Origin: an uncultured cyanobacterium
GTDB taxonomy: Bacteria; Cyanobacteriota; Cyanobacteriia; Cyanobacteriales; CAWUOF01
Length of the DNA: 64,000 nt
Assembly (NCBI GenBank): GCA_963744145.1
Contig: CAVUSO010000001.1
Span: 5,056,001-5,120,000 of the forward strand
Reading direction: 5' to 3'
Below the pieces are notes generated by a model. That model was given only the letters and a program-made list of their open reading frames with translations. It was not told the DNA's origin and searched no databases. Positions 25,292-54,712 of the stretch are shown here, in pieces (position 1 is the stretch's first letter; the number at the start of each line of letters is the position of its first letter). A program made the position numbers and the translations under genes.

Positions 25292-26671
25292 CTATTTAGG
25301 GCAGAAAAGTCGATCGCGTAAACCGCAAAAATAACAATCAGGAGTAGCTAAGTAATTAGGATTAGTTTTATGCCACTTAGATTCAGGAAACTCATAAATC
25401 CAATCCAGACCAGAATCAACATTCAAAAAACCGCTGACTATACCCTGAATAATCCCAACTCCTGTACTAGCACAAATGCTATTTAACCAAAATACCGCCG
25501 GATCATTAATTCCTTCTAGATAACCCGCTTGTGCTGCTAAGTTTTCAATTTCAACCGGAGCTGATTCTAAAGCAGCTCTTTGCAGACTAATGATATTACC
25601 ACACATCAGACACCACCCACCACCTAGAGGTGGAACAGTAATCCGACAATACATCCGGGGAACACTATTGGTTTTCACATCAATATGAGTGCCAAGACAA
25701 ACTAGAGGACGGATATATTTTAAAGCTAATTCTTGGGCAATTTGTCGAGAACGGTGATTGTCGGTAGCAACAACAATTAAATCAGTGGTTGCAATTTCTT
25801 GTTGCACAGGTTTATTTTCAACAGAGGTAGGTATCGCTTTGATAGAAGAACCTCTCCGATAAATATTCTTAATCAATTGTTTGACATATTCAACTTTATA
25901 CCAGTGATGGTCTACCATTTCCCATGTTGCTCCGGGCATCCGATTCAAGTTAACATTTTCTAAGCGATCGGGATCAATCAAGACCCAGTTTTTGACACCC
26001 AAACGTCCTAATTGTTCAGCAAAAACTGCTCCTATTCCACCACAACCAATTAAGGTAACGGTGAGTTGGCTGAGTTGTTGTTGAAAAGTTTCTCCAAATA
26101 CTTTTTGACGGCTAAATATTGGTTCATTTGCGTTAGTAGGATGACTAAATGTTGGCAATTCAAACCATGAAGAGTAAAATTTAACTTCCTCAAAAGCATT
26201 TCCTTGGCGATTCCAAAGTCGAAATTGAGATTGACGAAATGACTGATCAAAGACTCCAGAAATTAACTGGGGCTGTTGGGCGAATTTAGCAGAGAGAAAT
26301 CGGGCATATTCGGACTCATAAATATCATCAACTTGGGAAAAATAAGGAGTTTTTTGTTCAGCATGAGTATGAATATGAACGACATCGAACTCACCTTGAT
26401 GAAGATAGGTATTGAGGAGGTACTCGTGAAATTGTTGTTTGAGAATCAAGCCACTTGCTGATTGAGATTCGTAGCAATCAGGAGTAGGAACAACCCAAGC
26501 TTTTGGTGTATAGCGGACTTGATATTCGGAAATTTGATGGTGTTTACAAAAAAGAAAACCAATCACCTCTTCATTAGTTCTTCGAGCAGTTAACATGGCT
26601 TGACGGAATTGCTGCCACATTGTAGGTGGAATATGTAAAGAAATCTGGGAATAATGTTGTGAATTGTTCAT
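25292..26671 (-). CDS. JAB/JAMM peptidase fused to ThiF/E1-like activating enzyme
   Basis: N-terminal E..HIHTH..FSQVD (JAMM); C-terminal GCGGIG, DPDRLENVNLNR, ATDN, CLMC and CYFC zinc motifs. Confidence 0.88.
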   Translation of the reverse strand: MNNSQHYSQISLHIPPTMWQQFRQAMLTARRTNEEVIGFLFCKHHQISEYQVRYTPKAWVVPTPDCYESQSASGLILKQQFHEYLLNTYLHQGEFDVVHIHTHAEQKTPYFSQVDDIYESEYARFLSAKFAQQPQLISGVFDQSFRQSQFRLWNRQGNAFEEVKFYSSWFELPTFSHPTNANEPIFSRQKVFGETFQQQLSQLTVTLIGCGGIGAVFAEQLGRLGVKNWVLIDPDRLENVNLNRMPGATWEMVDHHWYKVEYVKQLIKNIYRRGSSIKAIPTSVENKPVQQEIATTDLIVVATDNHRSRQIAQELALKYIRPLVCLGTHIDVKTNSVPRMYCRITVPPLGGGWCLMCGNIISLQRAALESAPVEIENLAAQAGYLEGINDPAVFWLNSICASTGVGIIQGIVSGFLNVDSGLDWIYEFPESKWHKTNPNYLATPDCYFCGLRDRLFCPK

Positions 26672-26733
26672 GGTTTTGAGATGGGGTGAAATATCTGGTT
26701 AACAAATGCGATCGCCGGGGAAAATAACTGATC

Positions 26734-27219
26734 TCAATCTTCGCTATTAATAGCGTGCCGAGCTGTTATAAATAAAGTGGCGAGATTATGTCCATGTTCA
26801 GGGTAATTGTTAGGTCGCCAAGAATTAAGCCATCGATCTTGATTAAATCCACCACCTAGTCCTACACAGTACCAGTACCAACCTTCTGTACTTAAAAAAG
26901 GTGCGCCATAATAACTCTGTCTGGTAAAGTGATGATCTCCTTGTCCGACGGTATTCCAAGGGTAGTTTAGATAACAACCTATCGGGGGAAGACTGGGATA
27001 ATCTGGTGGTAATAAGAACAGTAAGTCAGAGTTAGAAACTGCAAATTTTTGAGAAGATAGTGGCATTCCTTTAATCAGAATGGCTGTATATTGAATACCA
27101 CTAATTGTTTTGCTGCCAACAATTATATTATTAGCGACTTTTTCCAACACTTTGAGTTCCGCCATAATTCTTGCTGTTGGCTGAAATTTTGATTGACCAT
27201 AATTGACAGCGATCGCCAT
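26734..27219 (-). CDS. Prokaryotic E2/UBC-like conjugating enzyme
   Basis: LLFLLPPDYPSLPP, WYWYC, WRP..NLATL; lies between the Ubl and E1 genes. Confidence 0.78.
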   Translation of the reverse strand: MAIAVNYGQSKFQPTARIMAELKVLEKVANNIIVGSKTISGIQYTAILIKGMPLSSQKFAVSNSDLLFLLPPDYPSLPPIGCYLNYPWNTVGQGDHHFTRQSYYGAPFLSTEGWYWYCVGLGGGFNQDRWLNSWRPNNYPEHGHNLATLFITARHAINSED

Positions 27220-27255
27220 GAAACTATCTCCTTTGACAATAGAATTAGAAAATAA

Positions 27256-27453
27256 TTATCCTTTCACAATTTTCGGAACAGTCCAAACTTTGCAACCTTC
27301 TTTAAGTGCATCGGTTTCTTTTAAGGGTTTGGTTCCTCCAAATCCTTCTTCCATGACATCATCATTACCAATTTCAGGTAATCTAGCTCTCAATTCTTCA
27401 ACAGTTGCACCAGTTGGTAAGTCTACTAATTTACCATTGACGATAGCTCTCAT
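27256..27453 (-). CDS. Ubiquitin-like beta-grasp protein ending in Gly (65 aa)
   Basis: MRAIVNGKLVDLPTGATVEELR...PKIVKG*; GAGAGGA RBS. Confidence 0.8.
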   Translation of the reverse strand: MRAIVNGKLVDLPTGATVEELRARLPEIGNDDVMEEGFGGTKPLKETDALKEGCKVWTVPKIVKG

Positions 27454-27483
27454 TGTTTTTCCTCTCACGATCAGGGGGGTCAA

Positions 27484-27879
27484 TTAATTGAAAATAACTG
27501 ATTTTTTGATCAAAGCGATCGCCGCAGTCTTCAGTTGGGATTTATGGACGGATGTTTGACAAGTTAAAGCCATCCAAACAGATAAAATTGTTATAGTCGC
27601 AGTTAGGATGATCATGACTAACAGCAATTGATGGTAAAGCTGTTCTAGTTTTTGAACTGACGCTTTTAACCTTTTGAGCTGGTTCATGTATTCTTTCCGA
27701 TCTTTTTGTTCAGCTGCTACTACATTGAGTTCCAATAATTCTAGGTGTTGGCTCAGTTCTCCCAGTTGGGAGTTAACTAATTCAAACTCCTTTGACTGTT
27801 GCACAATCAATTTGCCATTGATCGTTTGAATTAAATCAGCGGAAGTAATTTCAGTTAAGGCAGACATTTTTTCACTCAT
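27484..27879 (-). CDS. Coiled-coil protein with C-terminal TM helix
   Basis: AGGAGG RBS before MSEKMS; heptad region followed by LLLVMIILTATITILSVWMAL. Confidence 0.7.
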   Translation of the reverse strand: MSEKMSALTEITSADLIQTINGKLIVQQSKEFELVNSQLGELSQHLELLELNVVAAEQKDRKEYMNQLKRLKASVQKLEQLYHQLLLVMIILTATITILSVWMALTCQTSVHKSQLKTAAIALIKKSVIFN

Positions 27880-27907
27880 TCCTCCTTGTCTGTCGGTCAA
27901 GATTAAA

Positions 27908-28480
27908 TTAGTCGAAAATATTGGTATTACCAATGGGATAATAATTTTGGTTGTTATTCTGTTGCTCAAAATTATTAAAGATTTCAATCAAATCAACAAC
28001 GCTATTAGCTGCTAGTTTTAGATCACTACCAAGAGATTGTTCTACTGAAGCAACTTCAACACGCATTCCCCGTCTTCTAAGTTTTTCGGCTAAATAGGCA
28101 AAATCTGAATCTCCTGTGACTAAGACAACGATATCAGGACGGACTTCTAAAGCTAGTTCAATCGCATCCATTGCCATGACAATATCAATATTGGTTTCGT
28201 ACTCATCACCTTTTGCTTTACCTTCTTTGGCAACAACTAAAAAGCCTTTACTCTTAGCCCAATAGATAAATTTTTCTTTGGTTTTCCGCTGTTCTTCAAA
28301 TCGTTCTCGCGCTGGAGGTAAACCGACATAAATTACCATTTCAATCAGTTCTCTGCCCTCTTTTGGATCAGCTAGATAGTCACGGAGTTTTTGCCACTCT
28401 GCTTTTCTGTTAAATTTTTGTGCGGCGAGAAACGTATTGTCGCTATCTGCAAGAATCAGGACTCGACGAGGTGTTGCCAT
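27908..28480 (-). CDS. NYN/LabA (PIN-like) domain RNase
   Basis: ADSDN, NIDIVMAMD, VTGDSDF, LKLAANSVVDL. Confidence 0.88.
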   Translation of the reverse strand: MATPRRVLILADSDNTFLAAQKFNRKAEWQKLRDYLADPKEGRELIEMVIYVGLPPARERFEEQRKTKEKFIYWAKSKGFLVVAKEGKAKGDEYETNIDIVMAMDAIELALEVRPDIVVLVTGDSDFAYLAEKLRRRGMRVEVASVEQSLGSDLKLAANSVVDLIEIFNNFEQQNNNQNYYPIGNTNIFD

Positions 28481-28789
28481 AGGTTTTTCTGAATGGTTTG
28501 TTTGCTTTGTTGATCATTAAAAACTATGGTAGGAAATCCCCGTTTCCTATCACTAACACTTTCTGACTGGAAATCCCTGTTTCCTATCACCAATACTATC
28601 TGATCAGCTAAATAGGTGCTTAAGTTAGCTATTCTCACTAACTGCTCAAGGATTTTAACCAATTCCCGATCGCTAGAAATCCCTGATGATTGAAGGTGAA
28701 GCTAAAATCAACAGGGTCATGTAATACTGATGATGTTGACAACTACTATTTTGAGATGTCTTTCATGTTAATTTTAATTACAAATATCC

Positions 28790-28932
28790 ATACTTCGGAC
28801 ATTTTTTAATTTACAACGGTAGAGAGCGGGTTTTGGACTCCAAGATCGCCGCGTAGACATAGCCAGATCAAGGCATCATCAACGGTAAAATAATGATTTT
28901 AGCTGTTTCTCTAAAAACTATCCGGACTATTG
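28790..28932. promoter_or_regulatory. Conserved non-coding element, homologous to the region upstream of cas10
   Basis: Colinear similarity to 48238-48359, including the near-palindrome around TCCGGA. Confidence 0.6.
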
Positions 28933-29053
28933 ATCAATAACTGGAGTATTAATTTAGCAAAAGTCGGATTTCAGCTATGCACATAACCTCAATATTTACC
29001 GCAGTAGCGTGGGTTAGCACTGCCATTGTCTGTAAAAAAGGAAGAAAAATCCC

Positions 29054-29650
29054 ATGGCTTACAGTGACTTTACTTTAGAAAAAGTGCAGAAAAGTTTTGA
29101 TTTAACTATTTCAGAAAACCTAGACCTTTTTGCCAACATTCCGACTTTGGAACCTAGTCCATTACTCATAGAGTTTTTAGGAGATAATGCACAATTAGCA
29201 TTAAAAATCAACACCGAGAAAGCTAGATCAGAAATGATTATTGCGCCAATTTTGCTAGATTTTAGAAAACAGGCTTCCTCGAAAATAAGCTTGTTTTCAG
29301 GAGTAGATTTTAATGTGGATTATGACCGGGGATTAAACGGAATATGTGACTATATTATTAGTAATTCTACCGAACAGTTATTTATCAAATCTCCTGTAAT
29401 TGTTCTGGTAGAAGCGAAAAAGGAAAATATTGTCGGGGGATTAGGTCAGTGCGCTTCAGAAATGTTAGCTGCTCAAATTTTTAACGAACAGGAGGGAAAT
29501 AAAGTTCCGGTTATTTTAGGAGCAGTTACTTCCGGAAATGTTTGGAGATTTTTGCAATTAGAAGAAAAGCAACTCAGAATTGATGCGACAGAGTATTATC
29601 TGAAAGATGTCAATAAAATTTTAGGAATTTTTGCAAAGGGAGTAGAATAA
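29054..29650 (+). CDS. Conserved cyanobacterial protein, probable PD-(D/E)xK fold
   Basis: MAYSDFTL, EKARSEMII, GICDY, VEAKKEN. Confidence 0.7.
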   Translation: MAYSDFTLEKVQKSFDLTISENLDLFANIPTLEPSPLLIEFLGDNAQLALKINTEKARSEMIIAPILLDFRKQASSKISLFSGVDFNVDYDRGLNGICDYIISNSTEQLFIKSPVIVLVEAKKENIVGGLGQCASEMLAAQIFNEQEGNKVPVILGAVTSGNVWRFLQLEEKQLRIDATEYYLKDVNKILGIFAKGVE

Positions 29651-29822
29651 ATGTATCAGAAAGCTTACGGAATTATTGAAACTTTAGCACCACTTCATAT
29701 TGGTGCAAGTGCCGGAGAAGAAACGGGAAATTTAAACTTGATTTTTCGTGATCAGTTTACCCAAACTGGTATTATTCCTGGTAGTTCAATTCGGGGACGA
29801 TTTCGTGCTGATATGCGATCGC
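29651..29822 (+). pseudogene. cmr4: 5' fragment of a second cmr4
   Basis: First ~57 codons nearly identical in protein to cmr4 at 51547; similarity stops at a HIP1 site. Confidence 0.85.
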
Positions 29823-29954
29823 GCTGTCTAAAACTGGAAGAAGAAATAGATGAAAATCTTTGGTATAGACTGACCTATTGCTTTAATGGTGCTGACTGTA
29901 TTTCATGGCGATCGCACTCCCTGGAAACGTCAAGGAGAAGACCGATTAAGACAA

Positions 29955-30078
29955 TAGACCTCTTGCAAAAGTCCTTATTGATCTATTTATTGACAGGCAA
30001 GATGCCTGTCCCATCAGAAAAAATCACTTTTGTGGGACAGGCATCTTGCCTGTCCTATTTATTTTTGCAAGAGGTCTA
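29955..30078. mobile_element. MITE with TAGACCTCTTGCAAAA terminal inverted repeats and an internal palindrome
   Basis: TIR at both ends; a lone copy of the end occurs at ~38083. Confidence 0.7.
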
Positions 30079-30155
30079 ATTTATTCAAGCAGTCAAGACA
30101 GCTTTAAATATCACCAGTCCCACTTGGGGATGATCACTGGAAAGGAGCCTAATTT

Positions 30156-31394
30156 ATGAGCCGAAAAATTATTACTTTTTTGGGAGCTATTCCTGCTCAT
30201 GGAACTCCGGAAAGACCAATGCAGCCCACTACCTACGCTTTTAAAGATGAAAATGGCGTGGAGAAAAGATATGATGGTTATGTGTTTCCTGAAGCATTGC
30301 GGCAGTTTTGCGACTATGACTTGATGTTAGTTTGTTTAACGGAAAAAGCTAAAGCTGTAAATTGGTCAGTGCTAAAAGCGATCGCCGATCCCAAAATTCA
30401 AGCCGTTGATATTCCCACAGGTAACAATACTGCCGAAATGTGGCAGATATTTACCATTATTACAGGACATATTGAAGCAGGCGATCGGGTAATTTTTGAT
30501 ATCACTCACTGTTTGCGATCGCTTCCTTTTCTGGTGTTTTTATTTGCTGCTTATCTAAAAACAGCCAAGCAAGTAAAAATTGAGGCTATTTATTATGGCG
30601 CTCTTGAGTTAAAATCTGAAAATCATGGATTAGCACCAATCATTGATTTATCAGAATTCGTATCTATGATCGACTGGATAGCAGCTAGTAACCAATTTGT
30701 GGAAACCGGAGATGCCAGACAATTATCTAAACTACTCAATCCCAATAGTGATAAATCAGGAGCTAATCAAAAAGCAGCCGAAACTCTTTTCAATGTATCG
30801 ATCGCTACTTTACTTTGTCGACCTTTAGAGTTAGGTATTAGAGCAGAAGCGTTAGCCACCGATTTGTTAGTATCTGAACAATTGCAACTGAATCAAGTTG
30901 TCCCCTTTGAAATGTTGCGACAACAAGTTAATCAAACATTCAGTTCCTTTGTCGGAAAATTAGATAGGAATCCTCAAGCTGCATTACAAGCTCAGTTTCG
31001 GTTAATTAAATGGTATCATAATAACAATCGTATTATTGAAACCATGACGCTAGCTAGGGAATGGTTATTAGCGGCTATCAATTATCAGTTAGAGGGAAGT
31101 GTAGATATCAACAATCGAGATATCCGCGAAAAAGATATTCCTACTGCACTGCGGGATATTCATGATCATAAACCCCTTAGAGATTTAACACCTTATGGTA
31201 GAAAAATTCACACCTGGTCAGAAAAAAAGCAACTAATTTCGGTGTGGAATAAAGTGCGATCGCTGCGAAATACTCTCGACCATGCTGGATATGATAAACA
31301 AGCTCTACCTGCTAGTAAGATATTTCAGGATGCAAATCAAGCAATCAAATCTTTATCGGAATTAGCTAAGTATTGGGGTTTGGGTGATGACTAA
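30156..31394 (+). CDS. csx1: CARF-HEPN ribonuclease (Csx1/TM1812 type), cOA-activated effector
   Basis: ITFLG, DITHCLRSLP, IYYGALE; HEPN motif RNTLDH. Confidence 0.82.
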   Translation: MSRKIITFLGAIPAHGTPERPMQPTTYAFKDENGVEKRYDGYVFPEALRQFCDYDLMLVCLTEKAKAVNWSVLKAIADPKIQAVDIPTGNNTAEMWQIFTIITGHIEAGDRVIFDITHCLRSLPFLVFLFAAYLKTAKQVKIEAIYYGALELKSENHGLAPIIDLSEFVSMIDWIAASNQFVETGDARQLSKLLNPNSDKSGANQKAAETLFNVSIATLLCRPLELGIRAEALATDLLVSEQLQLNQVVPFEMLRQQVNQTFSSFVGKLDRNPQAALQAQFRLIKWYHNNNRIIETMTLAREWLLAAINYQLEGSVDINNRDIREKDIPTALRDIHDHKPLRDLTPYGRKIHTWSEKKQLISVWNKVRSLRNTLDHAGYDKQALPASKIFQDANQAIKSLSELAKYWGLGDD

Positions 31395-31737
31395 TGTAGG
31401 TGTGGATGAAAGAACTCATCCCAATTTTCCATAGAATTCAGAAAAACCTAACCCCCCAACCCCCTTCCCTACGAGGGAAGGGGGAGAAATAGCTCACTAA
31501 TTTTACTTGAGTTTCTGCTGATAATTCTTGCTCCCCTTTCCTCTTAGGAGAGGGGTTGGGGGAGAGGTCAATTGCTGCGATCGCTCCCATAATACTCTCA
31601 TGCTTAAGCTTTACATAAAATTGAGATTAGGAAAACGCCCTTTCCTTAAATAAACCATAATTGTGTTCAATGTTTCTCTGAGCAGACAGCGCAATTATGT
31701 CACAACAAAATCCCACCAATAGCGATCGAGATGTTAC
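31379..31737 (+). repeat. Direct repeat copy 1 (csx1 3' end, hairpins, RT upstream region and first RT codons)
   Basis: Matches 33715-33812 plus 35303-35649. Confidence 0.85.
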
Positions 31738-33575: not shown

Positions 33576-33812
33576 ATATGCAAATTTTTCTAAATGGATT
33601 CAAAGTGAGCAATTGAAGGACTCTTGGTTTTTGCATTGGCAGGATGGAAAAGTCTATGGTTTACCCAAGAAATCAGAACCTCCTCAACCATTTGGTGAAG
33701 CCGTAGAGTTGGACTTGGGTGATGACTAATGTCGGTGTGGATGAAAGAACTCATCCCAATTTTCCATAGAATTCAGAAAAACCTAACCCCCCAACCCCCT
33801 TCCCTAGGAGGG

Positions 33813-35302
33813 CTACGGTGTACACACAAGTTGAGATAGAGTAAGGAGAGAAGGGAAGTAAGGAGAAAAAAGTAGTGGAAAATCCAATTTTAATTCATGT
33901 GCAACAATGTGAGAGAACAGCATTCGGAGATCCAAGACTGGGAAAAAGAGGGGCTTCATTGTATGCAGCAATGGCACAACATCAATCAGTAAATATTCGG
34001 AAAATCAGTAAAAATCGAGCCGAGCAAGTTGGATATTACCGATTTTTAGGGAATGAGAATGTAAAAACTGGAGAATTAGTCGTAAGTTTAGGAGAGCATT
34101 GCGCCTTACAGGTAGATGGAAAACACCACGTCTTAGCGATAAGTGATAGTAGTGAAATTAACTTAGAGTCTCACAAAGGGAGATTGAAATCCGAGGGAAT
34201 TGGAGTAGTAGGAAACAATCAAGATATCGGATTTTATATTCATCCCACACTGGTATTAGATGCAGAAAATGGATTCCCACTTGGATTAAGTACAGTGCAA
34301 TTGTGGACAAGAGAACCTGACCATCAGGATCAGCATGAAAGAAAATATAAAAACTTACCGATTGAAGAAAAAGAATCCTATAAATGGCTCAAGTCAGCCG
34401 CTCAAACCCGCACCTGTTTCAGCTGGTCTAATATGAAAATGGTGACTCATATAGGCGATCGGGAAAGCGATATATTTGAAGAATTTGTCAGAGTACCTAA
34501 TCAACAGCATCATCTCTTAATTAGAGTCGGACAGAACCGTCGGCTCAAAGAGCAGTCTGAGTCTCTGTATACCTATTTAAGTCAGCAACATTGTGAAGGA
34601 ACTTATGCCATTGAAGTCCAGGCTGACTCACGGGTTGGACGAACAGCGAGAGAAGCATTCATGTTAGTACGTTGTGCCCTCGTTCAAATTCAGCGTCCTG
34701 AGCATTTATCTGCCGCAGATTATCCAGAAAGTGTCAATCTTTACGCAGTGGAAGCTGTAGAAGTCAATCCACCAAAAGGTCAACAACCGATTCACTGGCG
34801 ATTACTCACTACACATAGAGTAGTTTGTATTGAACAAGCATTACAAGTAATTGAATGGTACAAATGGCGCTGGCGGATTGAACAACTGTTTGCTACCCTC
34901 AAATCCGTTGGCTTAGATCTCGAAGCAACTCAATTAGAGTCAATTAAATCTATTCAAAAATTGTGTGTTTTAGCTTTATCGGTAGCTGTCAGAATTTTGC
35001 AGTTAATTGTCGGGCGTGACCAGCCTGAATTACCTGCAACCTACGCATTCAATGATGAACAACAGCAATGTTTATCCCAGATTGCTCCCACTGTTTCCGG
35101 ACCAACTTTAGCACAACAAAATCCTTATCCACCTCATTCTTTACCTTGGGCAACTTGGATTATTGCTCGACTGGGTGGTTGGTCTGGCTATCGGTCTCAA
35201 AAACCGCCAGGAATTACTACTTTAGTGCGCGGACTAAGCCAATTTCAATCCTTTTTTGATGGCTGGAAACTCGCTCTAGGTATGGTTGTGTGTACACCGT
35301 AG
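33813..35302 (+). mobile_element. IS4-family (IS50/Tn5-like) insertion sequence
   Basis: TIRs ctacggtgtacacacaa / ttgtgtgtacaccgtag; 11-bp target duplication ccctaggaggg at 33802-33812 and 35303-35313. Confidence 0.92.
33875..35302 (+). CDS. IS4-family transposase
   Basis: FGDPRL, DRESD, YKWRWRIEQLFATLK (YREK-like), IARLGGW. Confidence 0.92.
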   Translation: MENPILIHVQQCERTAFGDPRLGKRGASLYAAMAQHQSVNIRKISKNRAEQVGYYRFLGNENVKTGELVVSLGEHCALQVDGKHHVLAISDSSEINLESHKGRLKSEGIGVVGNNQDIGFYIHPTLVLDAENGFPLGLSTVQLWTREPDHQDQHERKYKNLPIEEKESYKWLKSAAQTRTCFSWSNMKMVTHIGDRESDIFEEFVRVPNQQHHLLIRVGQNRRLKEQSESLYTYLSQQHCEGTYAIEVQADSRVGRTAREAFMLVRCALVQIQRPEHLSAADYPESVNLYAVEAVEVNPPKGQQPIHWRLLTTHRVVCIEQALQVIEWYKWRWRIEQLFATLKSVGLDLEATQLESIKSIQKLCVLALSVAVRILQLIVGRDQPELPATYAFNDEQQQCLSQIAPTVSGPTLAQQNPYPPHSLPWATWIIARLGGWSGYRSQKPPGITTLVRGLSQFQSFFDGWKLALGMVVCTP

Positions 35303-35610
35303 CCCTAGGAGGGAAGGGGGAGAAATAGCTCACTAATTTTACTTGGGTTTCTGCTGATAATTCTGACTCCCCTTTCCTCTTAGGAGAGGGGTTGGGGGAG
35401 AGGTCTATTGCTGCGATCGCTCCCATTTCTCCTCATAATTCTGACTCCCCTTTCCTCTTAGGAGAGGGGTTGGGGGAGAGGTCTATTGCTGCGATTACTT
35501 CTATAATACTCTCATGCTTAAGCTTTACATAAAATTGAGATTAGGAAAACGCCCTTTCCTTAAATAAACCATAATTGCGTTCAATGTTTCTCTGAGCAGA
35601 CAGCGCAATT

Positions 35611-44934: not shown

Positions 44935-45040
44935 AGCTCTGATGTCCTGTGCATAAGTGATGAGGTTTATTCTCTCATCCCTATGGAAAGGGAGGTTTCC
45001 AAAGCCTGTTAATTTGGAAAAGGAACTGAGCGGGATTAAC

Positions 45041-46507
45041 ATGATGTTTGGTAAAACCTTTGATTTGTGCCCCAGTGTAGACCTGTTACAAGTGCTAGCA
45101 AGAGGTTCTTTGAGACAAAATTTGCCAAAAGCAGTGCGGTTATGGGTCCTATTGCGATCGCTGTACGGGGATGAAGCTGATCCCATGCGGTTGGATCTGG
45201 GTGAAAATTTTACTTACAGTGAGTGGAACAAACTATTTTTTAATCTAACCAATCATGAACATAAAAATTACAAAATTCCGACTGATCACGATCCCCAGTG
45301 TCATTGTGCTAAAACAATTAGTGATTGGTTATTCGATTCTAATATGGGTTGTGATCCTACAACATGGCAACATTCATTCTTACAACTTTATTCTATGTCT
45401 CAACCCGAATTAGATAGCTTGCTGTTATCGGGAATTATCAATAAAGACGGAGAAAATTCCAACAAGCAAACACCTCTACCAGGTGGTCGTTTATTTGCGA
45501 TCACGAGTAAAAATATTCAATATGATTTTGGAGCATTGGTGGAAATGGGATGGCTAAAAATTCAGAAAATAACAAGTTGTAATAGTAAAAGATGTAAAAC
45601 TCTCTATTGTCGCGTAGAAGATTTTCCGAATCTTGGTATTTATCCCAATCCTCCTATTGCTCAATCGGAAATTAAAGTCAGTAATGTTATTCAAAATGAC
45701 CTGGCTGATTTTTTTAATGATTTCGGAGGTGAAATTAATGGTAAACAGCGCTTCTTTTTAGATATTGAGTATATTGTTCCTGCAAATTTTTCCCAGCAAA
45801 TTAACACCATCAGACAACAACTGAAAGAAGTTTGGCAGCAATCAATAGTACCACCGATAAAAATAACATATATCAGTGCTAGAAATTATCAAAGCTATCA
45901 AGATGAAGGAGAAGAATATATTGTTTATCCAGTTTGCATCTATTATTCCCATCGCGCACCTTATTTATTTAGCTTTGGTCAAGATCCTGTAAATAAAGGT
46001 AAAATTGGCTGGTATGATTATCGATTAGACCGAATACAGAAATTAGAACAACTAACCTGGGATCAAGTTAAAATTGCCGATTTCTCTGAACAGATTTGTC
46101 AGGGAAAAACACCAAGTCATATTGAAGACTTAAGAAATGAAGCGTGGGGATTTGATTTTTACAAACCAAAAAAGTTAATGCTGTTGCGATTCGATCGCTA
46201 TTTTCATAATCGCTATATTGAGGGAACTGAACGGGAAAAAAGATTTCAGAAAATTCCTTACAGATATGCTAAAAGTCTGGTGGAACAAGAACCAATTGAC
46301 AGTGAACTTAAACAGCAAACTTTAGCGATTTTCAAGTCTCGTTCGACCACAGATATTTATTGTCGAGTTAATTATCGTGTAGATGATAATAATGTGATTA
46401 TGAGATTGAGAGCGTGGGGTGCTATGGTAGAAGTATTTTTACCTTGGGAATTGCGATCGCTGATGGCTAAAGAAATTGAAGATAATTACCATCTTTATCA
46501 TAATTGA
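45041..46507 (+). CDS. CRISPR-associated WYL-type regulator (TIGR03985-like)
   Basis: LQVLARGSLRQNLPKAVRLWV, YPVCIYY, YRLDRI, MRLRAWG..VEV. Confidence 0.8.
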   Translation: MMFGKTFDLCPSVDLLQVLARGSLRQNLPKAVRLWVLLRSLYGDEADPMRLDLGENFTYSEWNKLFFNLTNHEHKNYKIPTDHDPQCHCAKTISDWLFDSNMGCDPTTWQHSFLQLYSMSQPELDSLLLSGIINKDGENSNKQTPLPGGRLFAITSKNIQYDFGALVEMGWLKIQKITSCNSKRCKTLYCRVEDFPNLGIYPNPPIAQSEIKVSNVIQNDLADFFNDFGGEINGKQRFFLDIEYIVPANFSQQINTIRQQLKEVWQQSIVPPIKITYISARNYQSYQDEGEEYIVYPVCIYYSHRAPYLFSFGQDPVNKGKIGWYDYRLDRIQKLEQLTWDQVKIADFSEQICQGKTPSHIEDLRNEAWGFDFYKPKKLMLLRFDRYFHNRYIEGTEREKRFQKIPYRYAKSLVEQEPIDSELKQQTLAIFKSRSTTDIYCRVNYRVDDNNVIMRLRAWGAMVEVFLPWELRSLMAKEIEDNYHLYHN

Positions 46508-47819: not shown

Positions 47820-48499
47820 CCTATTTACTGAATAGGCGCAATAATTCCCATTCTAATTGCATTCGCGTAGTGTACCGTAGGTAATCGCTTGCTCAATTTC
47901 AGCTTTGGAATTGCCTGTCCAATAGCAACATCCAAAGCCCCTAGCCCCTTAGCATTGGATTCCAAGCTCCCCATAACGGATTAATGGGTTTTTTATGGCA
48001 ATTTATGTGATTTGAGTGAGTAATTAATTCTCATTTCGGGTAAAATCTATTAAAAGAGCATTGTAAAATCAGCTTTTTGATAATTTGCCTGGGACAGTTT
48101 TTGAAAAGATGGAGAGCCGCATGAGAGTAGAATTACTTATGGTCAAGCTCAAAGCCAGAATATTCATCAAGTGCCAGTAGCTTTTTGATAGAAGACCCCC
48201 TTTCCATGAGGGTGTAAAAATATAAAGTAGCCAATCAATACTTCAGACAGTTTTTGATTGTCAACGGTAGAAAAAGGGTTTCGCACCCATATTGCTCTCG
48301 AACTACCAACAGTAGATCAAGGGTTTCAGCCTACGATCTAAAAATTGTCCGGACTATTGCCCATAGGAGCGTAAATATGCCTAAACTAATTCCTTGGAAA
48401 TTAAAGCATCCACGAGCCATCATCCAAAAAATAAAAAAAATTATCCAAAATGAATGAGGTTATTTACCGTGGTTAAACCAAGAAAAGAGGAATATTAAA

Positions 48500-50272
48500 G
48501 TGAGTCAAATATATACTGCGATCACCTTTGCCCCAGTGCAAAGTTTTATTGAAAAATCCCGTAAATTGCGAGATTTATATGGGAGTTCATTTATCTTATC
48601 CTACTTAGCCGTGGAAATTTGTAGAGCAGCTAGGCGCGATCGCAATGTTCCAGAAGATAATCCCCCTCCGGAAATTGACCCGATCATCTCACCAGCACTC
48701 ATCAACGTCACTCAAGGGACGCCTAATCAAATAATTATTCGAGGAGATTACAAAAAAGATAACGCTGAAACCGCCTTTGCTGAAGCTTGGGATGCAGTGA
48801 TAGAAGGTTGTCGTCAGTGGATCGAAGACAATGTTAAAACTTGTGGGCAGTATTACTGGAGGAGGAACTGGGATGGGTGGAAACATCATGCTTGGGAGTT
48901 TTTTTGGGGACAAGGACAAAATATCGGTGAAGCAAGGAATGCGGTTAATGAAGCCAAGCGATCGCGCAATTGGATAGCAATAAACTGGGTAGGAGAAAGT
49001 TCGACTTTATCTGGTGCCGATGGGGTCGCGTGGCCAGGTTTAGGCAAGAATAATCCGAAGTATTCTAATTACCAGCAGCAAAAATTGGAGATTGAAGGTT
49101 TTTATCAGCGACTAAGTTTGAAACTGGGAGAAGCTTTTGCAGAAGCCGCAAATCTCAATGTAGATGAAGAAAAGAAAAAAGAATATGGTGCGGCGTTTGT
49201 TGACCCTGATGAAGAATTAAGCATACCTGAATTAGTGAAGCGGTTAATTACGCATCTAGCGATCGCTGAGAGAATTGTCGCGCGATTGAAACAACCAATT
49301 ACTAAAAGAGAACTTAAAGAAAGGTTGAAGCAACTGAGTGAAGAACTAAATCCCGATAGTTTTAGAGATTTAAGTCGCTTAAAACACAAAAATAAAAAAG
49401 CCCAGACATCAGTCCCAGAATATTATACTGGTTGGTTTCAGGGAGACGGCGATCGCATGGGCGATTTAATGAAAAGACTCTCTAACGAGGACAATCCTGA
49501 AATTGAAGCCCAAGAACTTCATAAATTTAGTCGGGCGATGATGAAATGGGGAGAAAAAAACTTCAAGCCCAACCTGAATGCTTCTAACGGTCGTACAGTT
49601 TATGCTGGTGGTGATGACTTTCTTGGGATTTTTTACCCCTTACCAAAAAATCCGTCACAAAAGCAGCAATTTATCCCTCTGACCGGACAAGATTGCATCA
49701 ATTGGTTTTATGAATTTCCCGCTCTTTGGAAACAGCACAAACAACCCGTAAGTGTTAGTGTTGGATTTGTCTGGGCAGCACCCAATGTACCACAAAGAGA
49801 CGTTTTACAGCACTGCCATTCAGCTGAATCTTCAGCAAAAAAGAGTGGCAAAGACCGTATTGCATTGCGGGTGCTATTTAACGGTGGTACTCATATAGAA
49901 TGGGTATGTCCTTGGTGGTTTTTAGAAGTATTAAAACACTATCAAGATAGAGATGGCAACACTTTAAAATCTTTGTCAAAAGGGAATAAAACTAAACCAA
50001 ACTGGACTCACCTTTATAACGATGTTGCTACTTTAGAATCGCGCCACGCATTTTACGGTAATACTAAAATTGCCCAAGCACTCTTTCAAATTTATTTTCC
50101 TGAGTGCAAGGATTTTATTCACCATGATTATTGGTGGGTACATTGCTATAGAGATGAATTGAGAACGGGCATTTTAGGACATGAACAAAAAAATGCCAAA
50201 AAAGATGTTACTGAACTGTTTAACGAATGGGTTATTAACTTAGCAAAAGTAGGATTTCACTTATGCACATAA
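48500..50272 (+). CDS. cas10: Cas10/Cmr2 lacking an HD domain, cyclase palm intact
   Basis: PVQSFIEKSRKLRDLYGSS, GDGDRMG, YAGGDD. Confidence 0.95.
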   Translation: MSQIYTAITFAPVQSFIEKSRKLRDLYGSSFILSYLAVEICRAARRDRNVPEDNPPPEIDPIISPALINVTQGTPNQIIIRGDYKKDNAETAFAEAWDAVIEGCRQWIEDNVKTCGQYYWRRNWDGWKHHAWEFFWGQGQNIGEARNAVNEAKRSRNWIAINWVGESSTLSGADGVAWPGLGKNNPKYSNYQQQKLEIEGFYQRLSLKLGEAFAEAANLNVDEEKKKEYGAAFVDPDEELSIPELVKRLITHLAIAERIVARLKQPITKRELKERLKQLSEELNPDSFRDLSRLKHKNKKAQTSVPEYYTGWFQGDGDRMGDLMKRLSNEDNPEIEAQELHKFSRAMMKWGEKNFKPNLNASNGRTVYAGGDDFLGIFYPLPKNPSQKQQFIPLTGQDCINWFYEFPALWKQHKQPVSVSVGFVWAAPNVPQRDVLQHCHSAESSAKKSGKDRIALRVLFNGGTHIEWVCPWWFLEVLKHYQDRDGNTLKSLSKGNKTKPNWTHLYNDVATLESRHAFYGNTKIAQALFQIYFPECKDFIHHDYWWVHCYRDELRTGILGHEQKNAKKDVTELFNEWVINLAKVGFHLCT

Positions 50273-51546
50273 CATCAACATCTATCGCAGAGGAAAAAAA
50301 ATCAGAAAATCCGCCATTTTCCCACATAATTGTGATTAAACCGTTAGGATTTCTCTATGGCAGTGCTGGAAAGTTTTTATCACCAGAAAACTTAGTCGGA
50401 CGTTCTGGAACTAGCTTTCCTCCTAGTGCTGCCACTTTATCAGGTATTTTTGCGGCTTCCTTACCGCCCGATAAAATCAAAAATTTGCAGTTGGCTGGGC
50501 CTTTTTGGGCATGGAGTCACAATCCGCAAAATTTTTATGTTCCTACTCCTTTTAATTGCTTAGTCAAGGATAAAAAAATTCATCAGCAAATCGCGTGGTT
50601 CCAACAATGTAAAGATCCATGTAAAGGACGATGGTTAGCACAATTTAGGGTGTGGCAAAAGATCAATGGAGAGTTAGTAGGGTTAGATTTATATAAAACA
50701 CCACCTAATGATAAGTTTGAAAGCAAAACTTGGTTACCAATCAGACATTGGAAACGAATAAGACATAAAATAAATAAAGATAAAAACTTATTCAAGGAAA
50801 CCATACCCCAAGAAGAAAATTGCTTTCCTCAACTTAAAGTTGAATCACCCCCTTGGGAATTTGTCCCTCACCTGCACCCGCGACTACAAGAGGATCAAAG
50901 ACGAGTTATAAAGCCTGAAGAAGAACGAGAAAGGGGCAGTTTATTTTTAGAAAACGGAGTGCAATTAAATCCCGATGCGTGCTTAGTTTATTTGTCAAAT
51001 ATTTCTATTCCCGATGGTTGGTATCGGTTTGGTGGTGAAGGTCATTTAGTAGATTTGCGTTGTGAGAATATATGCCAAACTGTTACTGATTTACTCAAAG
51101 AAAAGTTAGGGCACAGTTTTGCATTAATCACTCCAGCAGTATGGGGTTCTAATCGGCTGTCTTACCGCGAACCAATGGTACAGGAAAATCAGGATAAAAA
51201 TGGTGAGTGGGTTCCTGCTTGGAAACGGGAAGCTTTACTGACAGAACGTAGTATCCCTTTCCGTTATCGCTTAGGAAATCCTCAACAATCGGCAGAAGGT
51301 GAGAAACGAAAAAGTAATGAAAAATTGCTGTCTCGCGGACGGTATGCGATGCCAGCAGGCAGTGTTTATGTGTTAGAAAAACCTCTCCCATCTTGGCAAG
51401 AATGGGATAAAGATTGGTTTCCCAAAGAAGGTGTTTCATTTAAACGTTGGGGTTGTGGGCTATCGTTACCTTTGGAAAGCGCACTTGTTCAAGAGTCAGA
51501 TCCACAAACAGCTAATACTTCTGAAATTTCCCTAGGAGATAATTAA
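50263..51546 (+). CDS. cmr3: Cmr3 (Cas5 group)
   Basis: PLGFLYGS, FPPSAAT, FGGEG, PAGSVY, WGCG. Confidence 0.88.
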   Translation: MHITSTSIAEEKKSENPPFSHIIVIKPLGFLYGSAGKFLSPENLVGRSGTSFPPSAATLSGIFAASLPPDKIKNLQLAGPFWAWSHNPQNFYVPTPFNCLVKDKKIHQQIAWFQQCKDPCKGRWLAQFRVWQKINGELVGLDLYKTPPNDKFESKTWLPIRHWKRIRHKINKDKNLFKETIPQEENCFPQLKVESPPWEFVPHLHPRLQEDQRRVIKPEEERERGSLFLENGVQLNPDACLVYLSNISIPDGWYRFGGEGHLVDLRCENICQTVTDLLKEKLGHSFALITPAVWGSNRLSYREPMVQENQDKNGEWVPAWKREALLTERSIPFRYRLGNPQQSAEGEKRKSNEKLLSRGRYAMPAGSVYVLEKPLPSWQEWDKDWFPKEGVSFKRWGCGLSLPLESALVQESDPQTANTSEISLGDN

Positions 51547-52431
51547 ATGTATCACAAAGCTTATGGAATTATTGAAACCTTAGCCCCTTTACATATTGGA
51601 GCGACAGCAGGAGAAGAAACAGGAAATTTAAACTTGATTTTCCGCGATCAGTTTACCAAAACTGGGATTATTCCCGGTAGTTCAATTCGAGGAAGATTTC
51701 GCGCTGATATGCGATCACAAAATGGGAAAGTTTCTGAATGGTACGGTCACGAAGCGGTTGCAGGACAACAAGATGGCGGCACTACGGAAGCATCAGTTAA
51801 ATTTGAATATGCGTCTTTAGTATGGTTACCTGTTTTTTGTCCAGGTCAACCGATCGTTTGGGTAAGTTGTCCTTCACTGCTAAAACGTTACCAGCAAATC
51901 ACTCAAATTGATCGCAAGATCGATATTCCCAAACCTTACACGGCTGATCATGGATTAGAAGCGCGGTTAGTACCAGGAACAACTGAAAAAGTTTTATTCT
52001 TTAACTTGGGTTTTTTAGGGATTGAACATCAGGAAAATTTAGCCGTTTGGATTCCGATCGGTGCTGACTTACCTAAAAAACAATTAGTTGTTGTTGATGA
52101 TAACGATATCTCTATGCTGCATGATATGGCTTTGTATCGTCAAAGTCGTATTAAGATGCTGGATAATATGAAGAAAGTAGATACAAGAACGGGTGCTTTT
52201 TTTAATGTAGAAGCCTTGCCCGTTGGTAGTATTTTAGTGTTTCCAATAGCATCAAAACAATTCGGCTGGCAACCCTTTGGCAACCTGCAAAAAGATAAAA
52301 ATTATTCTCAAGAACTGTATTTTGGGGGATTAGAATCAATTGGATTTGGTCGGTGTAATGTAACCCTGGTAGGAGAAGCACTTGATCAGCCAGAAAATAT
52401 TCAAGCAACTACACAGGAGGTTAATAGCTAA
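51547..52431 (+). CDS. cmr4: Cmr4 (Cas7 RAMP)
   Basis: PLHIGA, IPGSSIRG, FGGLESIGFG. Confidence 0.92.
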   Translation: MYHKAYGIIETLAPLHIGATAGEETGNLNLIFRDQFTKTGIIPGSSIRGRFRADMRSQNGKVSEWYGHEAVAGQQDGGTTEASVKFEYASLVWLPVFCPGQPIVWVSCPSLLKRYQQITQIDRKIDIPKPYTADHGLEARLVPGTTEKVLFFNLGFLGIEHQENLAVWIPIGADLPKKQLVVVDDNDISMLHDMALYRQSRIKMLDNMKKVDTRTGAFFNVEALPVGSILVFPIASKQFGWQPFGNLQKDKNYSQELYFGGLESIGFGRCNVTLVGEALDQPENIQATTQEVNS

Positions 52432-52955
52432 TGGCTTGGAAATATTACAATTTCGAGGAAAATGGTCAGCAGTTACACAGTTTAGATCAAGTAGCGCAAA
52501 ATCTGGTTTTGGCGGCTAAGGAACGATTGGTGAAGGATGACAGGGGACGGATTGTTTTAGATGACAATGGACAAGGTAAACATTCGCTCAATCAATCCTT
52601 TAAAATGCGGGAAGCAGTTGCTTACGGGTTAGAGCGTTTTTGGGGAGAGCATTTGCGTTTTCAAGGTAAATCGAAGTTTAATTGCGATGAATTTGATAAT
52701 AAATCTAAGTATTGGAAGGATACTTGGGATGCTTTAGTGATAATTATGCGGCAAGGTGGTGTCATTATTCCCAATGATTCAGTTCATATTGACAGACCGA
52801 ATTCTGTGAAGTCAATGGCACAGAAATTATGGGCTTTGGATATTAAAGACCAGCGAATTATCTTGGCTGTTTTGACACAGTTATGCGATTCCATTGTCTG
52901 GTGGACACAGCGGTATAAAGGACCTGGGGATTTAACAATTGATGAAGATAATTAG
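52431..52955 (+). CDS. cmr5: Cmr5-like small subunit (Cas11)
   Basis: Helical, AYGLERFWGE; position between cmr4 and the large RAMP gene. Confidence 0.7.
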   Translation: MAWKYYNFEENGQQLHSLDQVAQNLVLAAKERLVKDDRGRIVLDDNGQGKHSLNQSFKMREAVAYGLERFWGEHLRFQGKSKFNCDEFDNKSKYWKDTWDALVIIMRQGGVIIPNDSVHIDRPNSVKSMAQKLWALDIKDQRIILAVLTQLCDSIVWWTQRYKGPGDLTIDEDN

Positions 52956-52966
52956 GAGATTAAATC

Positions 52967-54712
52967 ATGGTAAATATTCCCAATGCAGCTAATCTAATTC
53001 CCTTAATGTTTCAGGCACAAGCGAAAGGGCGATCGCAACTTCAGTACATTGATAGTACCAAAGAAGCCGAGGAACAAGATTCTTACAAATGGGCTGCTCA
53101 GTGGACTGATAAAGCTTATCCCAATCCGCCAGAATTTGGTGATAAGACATCTACAAAAATCTATCAAATCCAGTGGCGTTTTGTTACTAATGGCGGACAA
53201 TATGAAGGAATTATTTTTCCTGCCCTTGGTGCTTTTGGGTTACCTTTTTATCCAGGTAGCAGTATGAAAGGCGCATTTTGTCAAGCTTGCACTGATGACC
53301 AGAAAAAACGCTACCGTTTGACTAAAAATGGTGATGAACCAAGTTTATTACGCTTTCACGGTGGTTATCCGGTGAATGATTGGAAGGAGAATTTAGTAGA
53401 TATTGTTCATCCACAACAAGGATGGCAGATCAAAACATCTAATACCGCTCAAAAACCAGGAGGTGAAACAGGTTTTGCCCTAATTTCTTTATGGCAACCT
53501 ATTATTAAATTTGGAATTTCTAGTTTATTACCAGAAACTAATTGGGATGAAGTTTGGGCAATTTGGGAAAAAGCTTTAGGTTATGGAATTGGCTGTCGTA
53601 CCAGTAGTGGGTATGGGTTGCCAAAAGAGCGTTTAAATGAGAAAGGAGAAGTGGATTGTCCGATCCAAGTTCAGGGGGAAGTTCTCTATAAAGCTCATTT
53701 AAAAGGACAGGGACAAGCGCCAACTTTGATCGATAAAACTCCGGAATTTCGCCCAAATATTTTTAGGGGAAGTTTGCGGAGTCATGCTTTGCGGATTTTT
53801 GGAGGATTAACGAATTCAAAAACCGCAGAAAAGTTAGTAGAAAATTTATTTGGTGGAGTGAATGATGGTGGAACTCAGGGATTATTAACTTGCGTGTTTC
53901 AATCCTCATCTTTAAAACTAGGTGAGTTTACTGATGGATATAACGAGCCAACTTACAAAGTAGCTGGAGAATTACGTTGGTTATTGATGTCACCCCGTCA
54001 ATTGGATGAAAACAAAAAGGAGGTACTGAAAAGGTTATTAAGGGCTTTAATGCAGTTTGCAATGTTATTTGGTGGTTTTGGTAAGTCGTGGCGACGGGTC
54101 GATCATCGCCTATTTCCCTATGAATATAAAAATCATAGAGGTCAATTTGAAAACTACTACGATCGTCATCAACCACTGATTGGCTGTCACTGGGAGTGGA
54201 ATAGAAATTCCCTAATAAATGCGACTAATATTCCCTCTTTGAATCGCGTTGCGTCGTTTATTAATAAACTGAGAGAAATTGCTGGTGAATGGATGCACCT
54301 AAATAACTTAGAACCGAATGAAAATCAATATTCTCCTTGGCGAGAATCTTGGCATCCTGAGACTGTGCAAGTATGGGGACGATTGGCTGATGGAGCTGAT
54401 CATTGTGTTGCTATTAAATGGCTTCATGAAGCTTATCAAAGAGCTGATCGTCGTACCGGAATACCTGAGTTAAGGATTAAAAAAACTTCTGTTACTGGTT
54501 GCATAAATAAAATTAGTAGGCTTTGGCTTCGGATGTATCCAGTAGTTCGGCTGGTAGACGATCTAAACAATCCAGGGAAGAAAATCCCAAAGCTGACTCC
54601 TAATTATCTGGAACTATTGACTATTTTTCCTGATGATTCAGATGATTTCAATAATTTTGTCAATTTTCTCGATTCAGAGCCAGAAGGGTTTCGACAGCTT
54701 TGGTCTCTTTGA
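52967..54712 (+). CDS. cmr6: Two-RAMP protein (Cmr6 with a Cmr1-like module), type III-B variant
   Basis: YPGSSMKG..GIGCRTSSGYG, then FRPNIFRGSLR..LFGG..GGFGKSWRR. Confidence 0.8.
   Translation: MVNIPNAANLIPLMFQAQAKGRSQLQYIDSTKEAEEQDSYKWAAQWTDKAYPNPPEFGDKTSTKIYQIQWRFVTNGGQYEGIIFPALGAFGLPFYPGSSMKGAFCQACTDDQKKRYRLTKNGDEPSLLRFHGGYPVNDWKENLVDIVHPQQGWQIKTSNTAQKPGGETGFALISLWQPIIKFGISSLLPETNWDEVWAIWEKALGYGIGCRTSSGYGLPKERLNEKGEVDCPIQVQGEVLYKAHLKGQGQAPTLIDKTPEFRPNIFRGSLRSHALRIFGGLTNSKTAEKLVENLFGGVNDGGTQGLLTCVFQSSSLKLGEFTDGYNEPTYKVAGELRWLLMSPRQLDENKKEVLKRLLRALMQFAMLFGGFGKSWRRVDHRLFPYEYKNHRGQFENYYDRHQPLIGCHWEWNRNSLINATNIPSLNRVASFINKLREIAGEWMHLNNLEPNENQYSPWRESWHPETVQVWGRLADGADHCVAIKWLHEAYQRADRRTGIPELRIKKTSVTGCINKISRLWLRMYPVVRLVDDLNNPGKKIPKLTPNYLELLTIFPDDSDDFNNFVNFLDSEPEGFRQLWSL

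Follow-up and report, generated by a model that had tools for sequence, protein, structure and literature searches.

Two similar non-coding stretches of DNA from an uncultured cyanobacterium, one beside an operon for a ubiquitin-like (Ubl) module and the other in front of cas10, are copies of a MITE (miniature inverted-repeat transposable element) of about 124 bp, which is ordinary in itself, rather than a shared operator. Both copies, named A and B, are located in the window, i.e. the whole 64,000-nt stretch analyzed here (positions 5,056,001 to 5,120,000 of contig CAVUSO010000001.1). In the full account, to which we assign a probability of about 0.88, the MITE was moved in trans, A and B were inserted separately, and the real shared cis-element of the region is a 16-bp palindrome. 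The source genome has a size of 7.7 Mb; C1 is used as a contig label, and G064, L070 and similar labels indicate genomes or loci of relatives.

Structure, dispersal and termini of the element

The colinearity of the two stretches, reported in a preliminary description, was confirmed by pairwise alignment (MAFFT and blastn) and by a family profile. Positions 28786-28833 and 48234-48281 were 81% identical over 48 nt (blastn, E 1e-6), the profile matched copy B at 48237-48359 (E 3.6e-34) and copy A at 28790-28932 (E 8.1e-23), and the overall identity of A and B was 67% (ungapped columns), with an additional segment of about 21 nt in A at about 28851-28871 (MAFFT). Alignment of 11 copies with their flanks gave sharp ends (CAATAC... 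and ...CTATTG), and therefore the limits were set at 28788-28932 for copy A (145 bp, + strand) and 48236-48359 for copy B (124 bp, + strand); the ends given previously were retained, and the starts were moved two bases to the left. What had been described as roughly inverted ends are true terminal inverted repeats (TIRs), CAATACTTCGGACAGTTTTT and the reverse complement CAATAGTCCGGACAGTTTTT matching at 18 of 20 bases, and the right repeat has the near-palindrome GTCCGGAC as its core. Between the 20-bp TIRs, the interior contains two direct copies of a motif of about 21 nt (CAACGGTAGAATAAGGGTTTC). The left TIR, first internal repeat, second internal repeat and right TIR are located at 28788-28807, 28814-28834, 28880-28900 and 28911-28932 in copy A, and at 48236-48255, 48262-48282, 48307-48327 and 48340-48359 in copy B, respectively. 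Open reading frames (ORFs) overlapping A or B encode 21-67 aa only, and none occupies a matching position in both. Copies of the family range from 107 to 145 bp, and the flanks of 15 copies diverge directly beyond CAATA...TATTG.

Using copy B as the blastn query, 10 more near-full copies were detected in the same genome (72-89% identity). An iterated nhmmer profile gave 31 matches at E<1, of which 23 were at E<=2e-10; 16 of these 23 spanned at least 100 of the 123 profile positions and 7 were partial. No ORF of 100 aa or more was overlapped by 20 of the 23 copies. The 58 ORFs flanking 16 other copies were scanned against Pfam and belonged to unrelated families, including aminotransferase, Uma2, CHAT, HepT/MNT, XisH/XisI, EPSP synthase, GUN4 and kinases; no cas gene was found among these 58. 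Beyond the window, four right-half copies (profile positions 58-123) were found at C1:5293488-5296705 with a spacing of about 1040 nt, as if they lay inside a tandemly repeated unit. The distribution among relatives was patchy. Three of 60 sampled relatives were positive, all outside the taxonomic family of the window, full copies were additionally present in G181, G162, G210 and G216, and the only same-family genome sampled contained no copy. The element was absent from 17 cas10 loci of relatives (115 kb, profile with all filters off), in which the best match covered 26 nt of the internal repeat (E 0.03), and from the Ubl-cmr locus of G064. Thus, a short element without coding capacity, bounded by sharp TIRs, is dispersed in unrelated contexts, and its mobility is indicated by the patchy spread and by an empty copy-B site in G064, a distant relative (see below).

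The element had itself been proposed to serve as an operator or promoter common to the Cmr, csx1 and Ubl operons, which it would coordinate when bound by the WYL-type protein encoded at 45041. Both copies indeed precede genes of the cmr type, share their orientation and are found within a single CRISPR-Ubl region of 20 kb, the palindrome GTCCGGAC is present in the right end, and A and B are the only copies of the 23 that are near palindromes of the WYL type. This proposal is nevertheless most improbable. At least 21 further copies adjoin unrelated genes, and the operator inference fails for the element because it recurs across the genome as a generic repeat, the very finding that the preliminary description had set against its own proposal. 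A motif scan upstream of cas10 in relatives, also suggested there, found the element in 0 of 17 loci and not in the intact Ubl-cmr locus of G064. The element is thus neither conserved upstream of orthologous targets nor restricted to a regulon; A and B are only 67% identical, conservation of the operator kind is shown by a different motif (the 16-bp palindrome), and scans for sigma-70 promoters and terminators around A and B gave no promoter-like site, the hexamers being degenerate.

A probable source of mobility was indicated by the termini. A search with the terminal pattern gave 54 matches at <=3 mismatches and led to the recurrent end of a 1575-bp insertion sequence (IS), which is present in seven genomic copies (99.7-100% identical) with CAATACTCCGGACA at both termini, 14-bp TIRs, and direct repeats of 5-7 bp around six of the seven copies. 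It carries one ORF for a 428-aa DDE transposase, which scored above the cut-offs of Pfam DDE_5 and DDE_Tnp_1 and below the curated cut-off of the IS701 family (NF049999, E 7e-34), and was therefore regarded as a divergent member of the IS701/IS4 kind. A plasmid search for the name of the IS returned 'transposase' annotations only, with a top identity of 49%. The termini of the MITE and of the IS are identical at 13 of 14 bases, and 21 of 22 bases of the MITE terminus agree with the end of a related, truncated IS at C1:6468190. The MITE thus has the termini of an IS that resembles the IS701/IS4 family in its 14-bp TIRs, 5-7-bp duplications and single DDE ORF, and differs from the members of that family in the score of its transposase. 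Such a transposase would mobilize the MITE in trans.

Several observations weigh against this reading. The similarity between IS and MITE stops after about 14 terminal nt, and the interior of the MITE is not a deletion derivative of the 1575-bp IS; since only these terminal nt are shared, mobilization in trans is what we infer. Most target duplications have decayed. Matches at k=5 numbered 31 over 75 flank positions, against 22.9 expected by permutation (P 0.026), at k=6 the P value was 0.06, k=4 and k=7 gave no signal, and a perfect 6-bp flanking repeat was found in only one of 15 copies. The copies are old (55-91% identical among themselves), and no recent movement can accordingly be claimed. 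Finally, the comparator for the empty site, G064, is distant (67% Cas10 identity), and the short flanks compared are AT-rich.

Insertion sites of copies A and B

G064, the closest Cas10 relative (67% identity), has a single co-directional locus in the order NYN, CorA-like, E2, E1, SAVED, cas10, cmr3, PD-DExK, cmr4, cmr5 and cmr6. By comparison with this locus, copy B was inserted into the SAVED-cas10 leader, with the palindrome 30 nt upstream of it and the ribosome-binding site (RBS) of SAVED just downstream. A patch of 39 nt immediately left of the MITE (48186-48224) is homologous to the G064 sequence that precedes the SAVED start by 27-65 nt (0 of 2000 shuffles scored equally), which places copy B between this patch and the SAVED RBS. 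The empty site of G064 reads GCAAGTAAATAGGAG, and the window reads ...GTAGCCAAT, the MITE, and then CCCATAGGAG..., with the flanks CCAAT and CCCAT of copy B forming a 4/5 direct repeat. When the MITE and the duplication were subtracted, the distance from the palindrome to the ATG was about 42 nt; the sites of other loci begin 41-79 nt upstream. A transcript from the ancestral promoter would now traverse 124 nt of MITE.

The SAVED gene following copy B has been gutted (48377..48476, + strand). Its RBS, start and N-terminus are colinear with SAVED of G064, and C-terminal residues are kept, in the form of a 26-codon 5' stub with the RBS (48377-48457, ATG at 48377) that overlaps, in another frame, a 3' remnant of the last ~20 codons (48411-48476). 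The gutting was an event separate from the insertion of the MITE. The downstream operon, operon B (48500..54712, + strand; cas10, cmr3, cmr4, cmr5 and cmr6/1-like by Pfam and NCBIfam matches), is about 70% identical in nucleotide sequence to the G064 operon and has no PD-DExK gene. The SAVED protein of G064 (L052:1892-2962), the type lost from the window, is of the membrane type (PADLOC 'SAVED_TM' or 'CARF, 4 TMs'); because of this loss, operon B is without its native cyclic-nucleotide effector. The window still contains csx1 (30156-31394) and csx3-AAA (43600-45186).

Copy A is located at a rearrangement junction, with the upstream region of an inverted Ubl operon to its left and a heavily deleted cmr operon to its right. 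The Ubl operon (25292..28480, - strand) consists of genes for NYN, a 167-aa CorA-like protein, an E2-like protein and E1/ThiF (Pfam, NCBIfam and PADLOC); its genes at 25322-28480 are 72.6% identical in nucleotide sequence to those of G064 and are inverted relative to the arrangement in relatives. On the right side, the colinearity of loci A and B extends past the element, which had been missed in the preliminary description. The right end of copy A adjoins a remnant of the cas10 3' end with the first ~28 nt of cmr3 (28947..29004, + strand), which is 86% identical to 50233-50290 of operon B, and of which 41 nt (28948-28988) are 83% identical to G064 (L070:14347-14387). An 815-nt block homologous to G064 (29009-29822) contains the cmr3 tail, an intact PD-DExK gene and the first ~58 codons of cmr4. 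A truncated cmr4 ORF (29651..30079, + strand; identical at 58 of 72 aa to the Cmr4 encoded by operon B) loses its homology at 29822, and positions 29648-29820 are 88% identical to the cmr4 start of operon B at 51544-51716. A 34-nt remnant of the cmr6 tail (29893-29926) was recognized by nucleotide homology to G064. Locus A is 84% identical to G064 in nucleotide sequence, against ~70% for operon B. The decayed operon to the right of A, of which the last ~40 nt of cas10 adjoin the element, is thus orthologous to the operon that is linked to Ubl in relatives.

The intact CRISPR-associated PD-DExK gene (29054..29650, + strand; 198 aa; PADLOC PDLC01472, E 4e-51) encodes a protein with 84% amino acid identity to the G064 ortholog, which is likewise located between cmr3 and cmr4. 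An assignment of this 198-aa ORF as a Cmr3 remnant was rejected, since the product is not Cmr3-like and PD-DExK is native to the operon type. At least 10 paralogs (45-63% identity) are found elsewhere in the genome. Where the truncated cmr4 ORF stops, a perfect 22-nt inverted repeat (29992-30013 and 30033-30054) lies within outer inverted ends (29950-30080) and looks like a further small hairpin or MITE-like insertion.

The preliminary description had offered, as a second possibility, that the element is the leftover promoter of a decayed second cmr operon. The decayed operon is real, and the element is not its promoter, because it is missing from the intact G064 ortholog and because the sequence left of A is unrelated to that left of B (an equal score was reached by 1634 of 2000 shuffles).

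The copies A and B most likely arose by separate insertions of two subfamilies. In a maximum likelihood (ML) tree of 15 full-length copies with both termini present, copy A grouped with C1:1304447 (ultrafast bootstrap 95, 75% identity) and copy B with C1:6310020 (ultrafast bootstrap 78, 89% identity), followed by C1:4919997 (86%), and A ranked only 10th closest to B among 14 copies. Two insertions are favored because A and B fall into different groups, and because G064 is nearer to locus A and yet contains no MITE. On the other side, a node of low support (61) unites the A and B clades in the tree, none of the 23 copies other than A and B lies within 300 nt of a true palindrome, and under uniform insertion the chance of their co-location is ~1e-4 by a rough calculation, so that local preference, selection or common descent may have played a part.

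Under common descent, a single MITE inserted in a cmr-operon leader would have been duplicated later, and the flanks of copy A would have been remodeled by deletions and an inversion starting at the ends of the element. Such a history is consistent with the position of copy A at the head of a decayed cmr operon, its right end directly adjoining the cas10 tail, with that of copy B in the leader of the other operon, and with the union of both clades in the ML tree; co-location near operators is improbable by chance, and other patches shared by loci A and B are 86-88% identical, which points to exchange between the loci. We regard it as a minority possibility. An insertion before the duplication would need a clean loss, since G064, with 84% nucleotide identity to locus A (operon B, ~70%), is without the MITE; the left flanks are unrelated; A and B are further from one another than A is from C1:1304447 or B from C1:6310020 and C1:4919997; and the MITE identity of 67% is far under the 86-88% of neighboring patches. 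That those patches are so similar, although operon B is only ~70% identical to G064, suggests that the two cmr loci have recombined or undergone gene conversion.

A 16-bp palindrome and the WYL-type regulator

The palindrome (GGAAR-N6-YTTCC, 16 bp; relatives were scored at <=1 mismatch unless noted) was first noticed upstream of NYN, where two tandem 22-nt repeats each contain GGAAATCCC(C/T)GTTTCC. Five exact palindromes are present in the window against 0.48 +/- 0.70 expected, none of 100 shuffles reached five, and all five are upstream sites in the CRISPR-Ubl region. The tandem pair (28532-28547 and 28569-28584) precedes the NYN start (28480, - strand) by 52-67 and 89-104 nt and is located about 204 nt left of copy A. 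Another site (35544..35559) is 52-67 nt upstream of the genes for reverse transcriptase (RT), Cas1 and Cas2 (RT-cas1-cas2, ATG at 35611) and has an exact duplicate at 31630-31645 in a repeated segment; in L147 the palindrome is found 77 nt upstream of RT. The fifth (44985..45000) is located 41-56 nt upstream of the ATG of the WYL gene (45041), in a divergent region shared with csx3-AAA. In addition, AGAAGACCCCCTTTCC (48190..48205), with one mismatch, lies in the patch 48186-48224 to the left of copy B. Its G064 counterpart is GGAAGACCCCGTTTCC, and related palindromes occur at both corresponding places of G064.

The palindrome is conserved in other cyanobacteria. Of 30 NYN loci, 27 have it 58-79 nt before NYN (shuffle mean 0.77, maximum 4). 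For cas10, the exact pattern is present in the preceding 400 nt at 8 of 13 Ubl-linked loci (shuffle mean 0.014), and 7 of 13 Cas10 loci found independently have the palindrome at 82-97 nt upstream. WYL homologs have it within 200 nt upstream, mostly at 49-60 nt, in 26 of 28 cases, 18 of them exact (shuffle mean 0.44, maximum 3). Among 400 other genomes of the order, the WYL gene was detected in 134 and NYN in 33; assuming that these are the same 400 genomes, WYL was present in 30 of 33 NYN-positive and in 104 of 367 NYN-negative genomes, which are non-independent through kinship. The three NYN-positive genomes without WYL comprise two partial NYN matches and one 61%-complete genome. The NYN homologs in the 33 genomes are 66-87% identical. 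The genes NYN, CorA-like, E2 and E1(ThiF) form a conserved CRISPR-linked module, at 13 of 21 cyanobacterial loci a cas10-cmr operon of type III-B comes next on that strand, and the E1 of the Ubl operon matches the 'E1-E2' models (PADLOC) of the Cap2 type known from cyclic-oligonucleotide-based antiphage signaling systems (CBASS).

The WYL gene (45041..46507, + strand) encodes a 488-aa protein of the TIGR03985 family with a helix-turn-helix (HTH) and a WYL domain (NCBIfam E 3e-74; PADLOC 'HTH-WYL' E 9e-128). Its AlphaFold2 model (pLDDT 80) matched the folds of DriD (Foldseek E 9e-9), PafBC, CapW and BrxR, and a PDB search with its sequence gave no match at E<=1. With the palindrome standing upstream of the regulator's own gene and of neighboring operons, and with an HTH-WYL fold in the product, the palindrome is probably the operator of this protein, upstream of WYL, the Ubl operon, RT-cas1-cas2 and SAVED'-cas10. 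From these comparative data we infer an autoregulated WYL regulon. The WYL-linked co-regulation of the Cmr and Ubl operons suggested by the preliminary description thus probably exists, through a separate palindrome and not through the element reported there. Two points tell against this assignment. The exact pattern occurs at chance density over the genome (52 matches on C1), and the bare pattern therefore does not define sites; 12 of the 52 matches have a GC-rich core, and 6 of these 12 are at WYL, CRISPR or Ubl upstream sites. Moreover, WYL is a candidate binder of the palindrome, the link between them being comparative only.

A protein of this kind has been described in Synechocystis, where a type I-D CRISPR system is under negative regulation by the WYL protein sll7009 (PMC4012209). 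The window protein resembles sll7009, BrxR, CapW and DriD in its HTH-WYL fold and in the location of its gene in a defense locus, and, as with WYL regulators, both its own gene and neighboring defense operons have the palindrome about 50-60 nt upstream. It differs from them in its larger size (488 aa), in belonging to the TIGR03985 family, and in a predicted regulon that unites III-B cmr, RT-cas1-cas2 and the E1/E2/NYN module. This likeness concerns the 16-bp palindrome, not the reported element.

Two duplications carry the palindrome with them. At C1:3333105-3335605, beyond the window, a second divergent pair of WYL and csx3-AAA (92-96% identical) has the palindrome at 3334207, and its WYL copy contains an in-frame TGA. 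Within the window, segments flanking a gene for an IS4-family transposase (33875-35302) are duplicated with 94-98% identity (31380-31735, 33715-33812 and 35303-35649), so that the palindrome is present twice (31630 and 35544).

The internal motif, related elements and biological meaning

The weak matches of the MITE profile in the cas10 loci of relatives all fell on the internal repeat. In those loci, the 20 nt concerned are the core of a conserved element of 150-180 nt (E 1e-21 to 1e-45, seven places), namely the CRISPR leader between the array and the divergent cas10. The 20-nt motif is the most conserved block of these leader elements, which lie about 40-400 nt from the arrays, and is directed away from the array; in L082-L085 and L100 it is located about 130-170 nt from the nearest repeat. 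With <=1 mismatch, AACGGNAGAATNAGGGTTTC was found in 77 of 301 genomes of the order, against four matches in total for the reversed control, and its sites included MITE copies, leaders, and positions before mutS, EamA, MIF, csx3, cas6 and other genes. In the source genome it was found inside MITE copies only, two per copy. The motif often lies between stems, the sequences of which differ among instances.

In the window, the CRISPR leader contains a tandem duplication of 136 nt (38478-38749, 77% identity), and positions 38741-38903 may hold a diverged form of the leader motif of relatives (profile match at 38741-38820, E 0.07). One of the seven leader elements of relatives gave a significant local match to the window leader (18 of 20 nt at 38884-38903).

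From this distribution it might be argued that AACGGNAGAATNAGGGTTTC is a functional site, common to mobile elements and CRISPR leaders across cyanobacteria, that was spread by the MITE family, with A and B retained for retuning a toxic defense locus; we consider this unlikely. The motif could act as the core of a portable promoter, or it could bind a DNA-bending host factor that serves both a transposase and the Cas1-Cas2 integrase. Its spacing from the following gene ranges between 21 and 1039 nt and the downstream genes are unrelated, so that a promoter set at a constant distance was rejected.

Equally doubtful is an exapted MITE, in which the element or its motif would act in cis on cas10 as a putative promoter, a 5'-leader hairpin or a host-factor site. 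In the best-scoring copy, the left end and the first repeat together read CGGACA-18-TAGAAT, matching 9 of 12 sigma-70 positions, copy B is inside the presumed cas10 leader, and both the occurrence of the motif in 77 of 301 genomes (four reversed-control matches) and its rank as the top-conserved block of the leader elements of other cyanobacteria are in keeping with a function. The hexamers of A and B are, however, degenerate, no promoter-like site passing in either, the distance from motif to gene varies over 21-1039 nt, and single-strand folding of A and B, on both strands, was no better than that of shuffled sequences (z -0.8 to -1.5).

The same folding result, obtained as minimum free energies on either strand, bears on a view in which the family consists of small structured RNA genes and not of a DNA transposon. 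The inverted ends are able to pair, and the flanks of the motif in other genomes pair beyond shuffles (summed free energy -491.5 against -434.7 +/- 17.4, z -3.3, over 33 non-independent instances). Nevertheless, no Rfam family came near its gathering score with both copies, one leader of a relative and 12 motif loci as queries, the copies occur in both orientations relative to neighboring genes, and the termini match those of an IS, so that RNA genes are hardly tenable.

Correia/NEMIS and ERIC-type MITEs have promoter and integration host factor (IHF) properties. The present MITE is like them in lying between a promoter and a gene, in a presumed leader with which it would be co-transcribed, with promoter-like hexamers possible at one end, and is unlike them in that the promoter-like hexamers of A and B are degenerate. 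Both groups are listed as MITEs in Table 1 of PMC3184786, where many MITE families are reported from cyanobacteria. Among these, Nezha (Zhou et al. 2008, as presented in PMC3184786) is about 130-170 bp long, has TIRs like those of an intact IS, is intergenic, and shows filled and empty sites between relatives. By description only, our element is likened to Nezha in its length of 124 bp, its IS-like TIRs, its intergenic location and the empty site in a relative; unlike in that description, its target duplications have decayed, its copy number is low (~23), and its partner IS is of the IS701/IS4 kind. Among the literature matches listed, no description was found of the MITE, of the palindrome, or of a link between E1/E2 and type III CRISPR, which does not prove their absence. 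'TIGR03985' did not occur among the matches listed, and the main text of PMC6546367 contains no 'ThiF', 'NYN' or 'ubiquitin'.

The look-alike stretches in this defense island were thus a false regulatory lead, being transposon copies. As such they illustrate how MITEs reshape loci. Copy B splits an operator from cas10, and copy A marks the breakpoint of the inversion that took a whole cmr operon away from the Ubl operon, and of its deletion. The palindrome is the better candidate for a regulatory element, and it gives a testable regulon that would tie a Cap2-like conjugation module to type III-B CRISPR.

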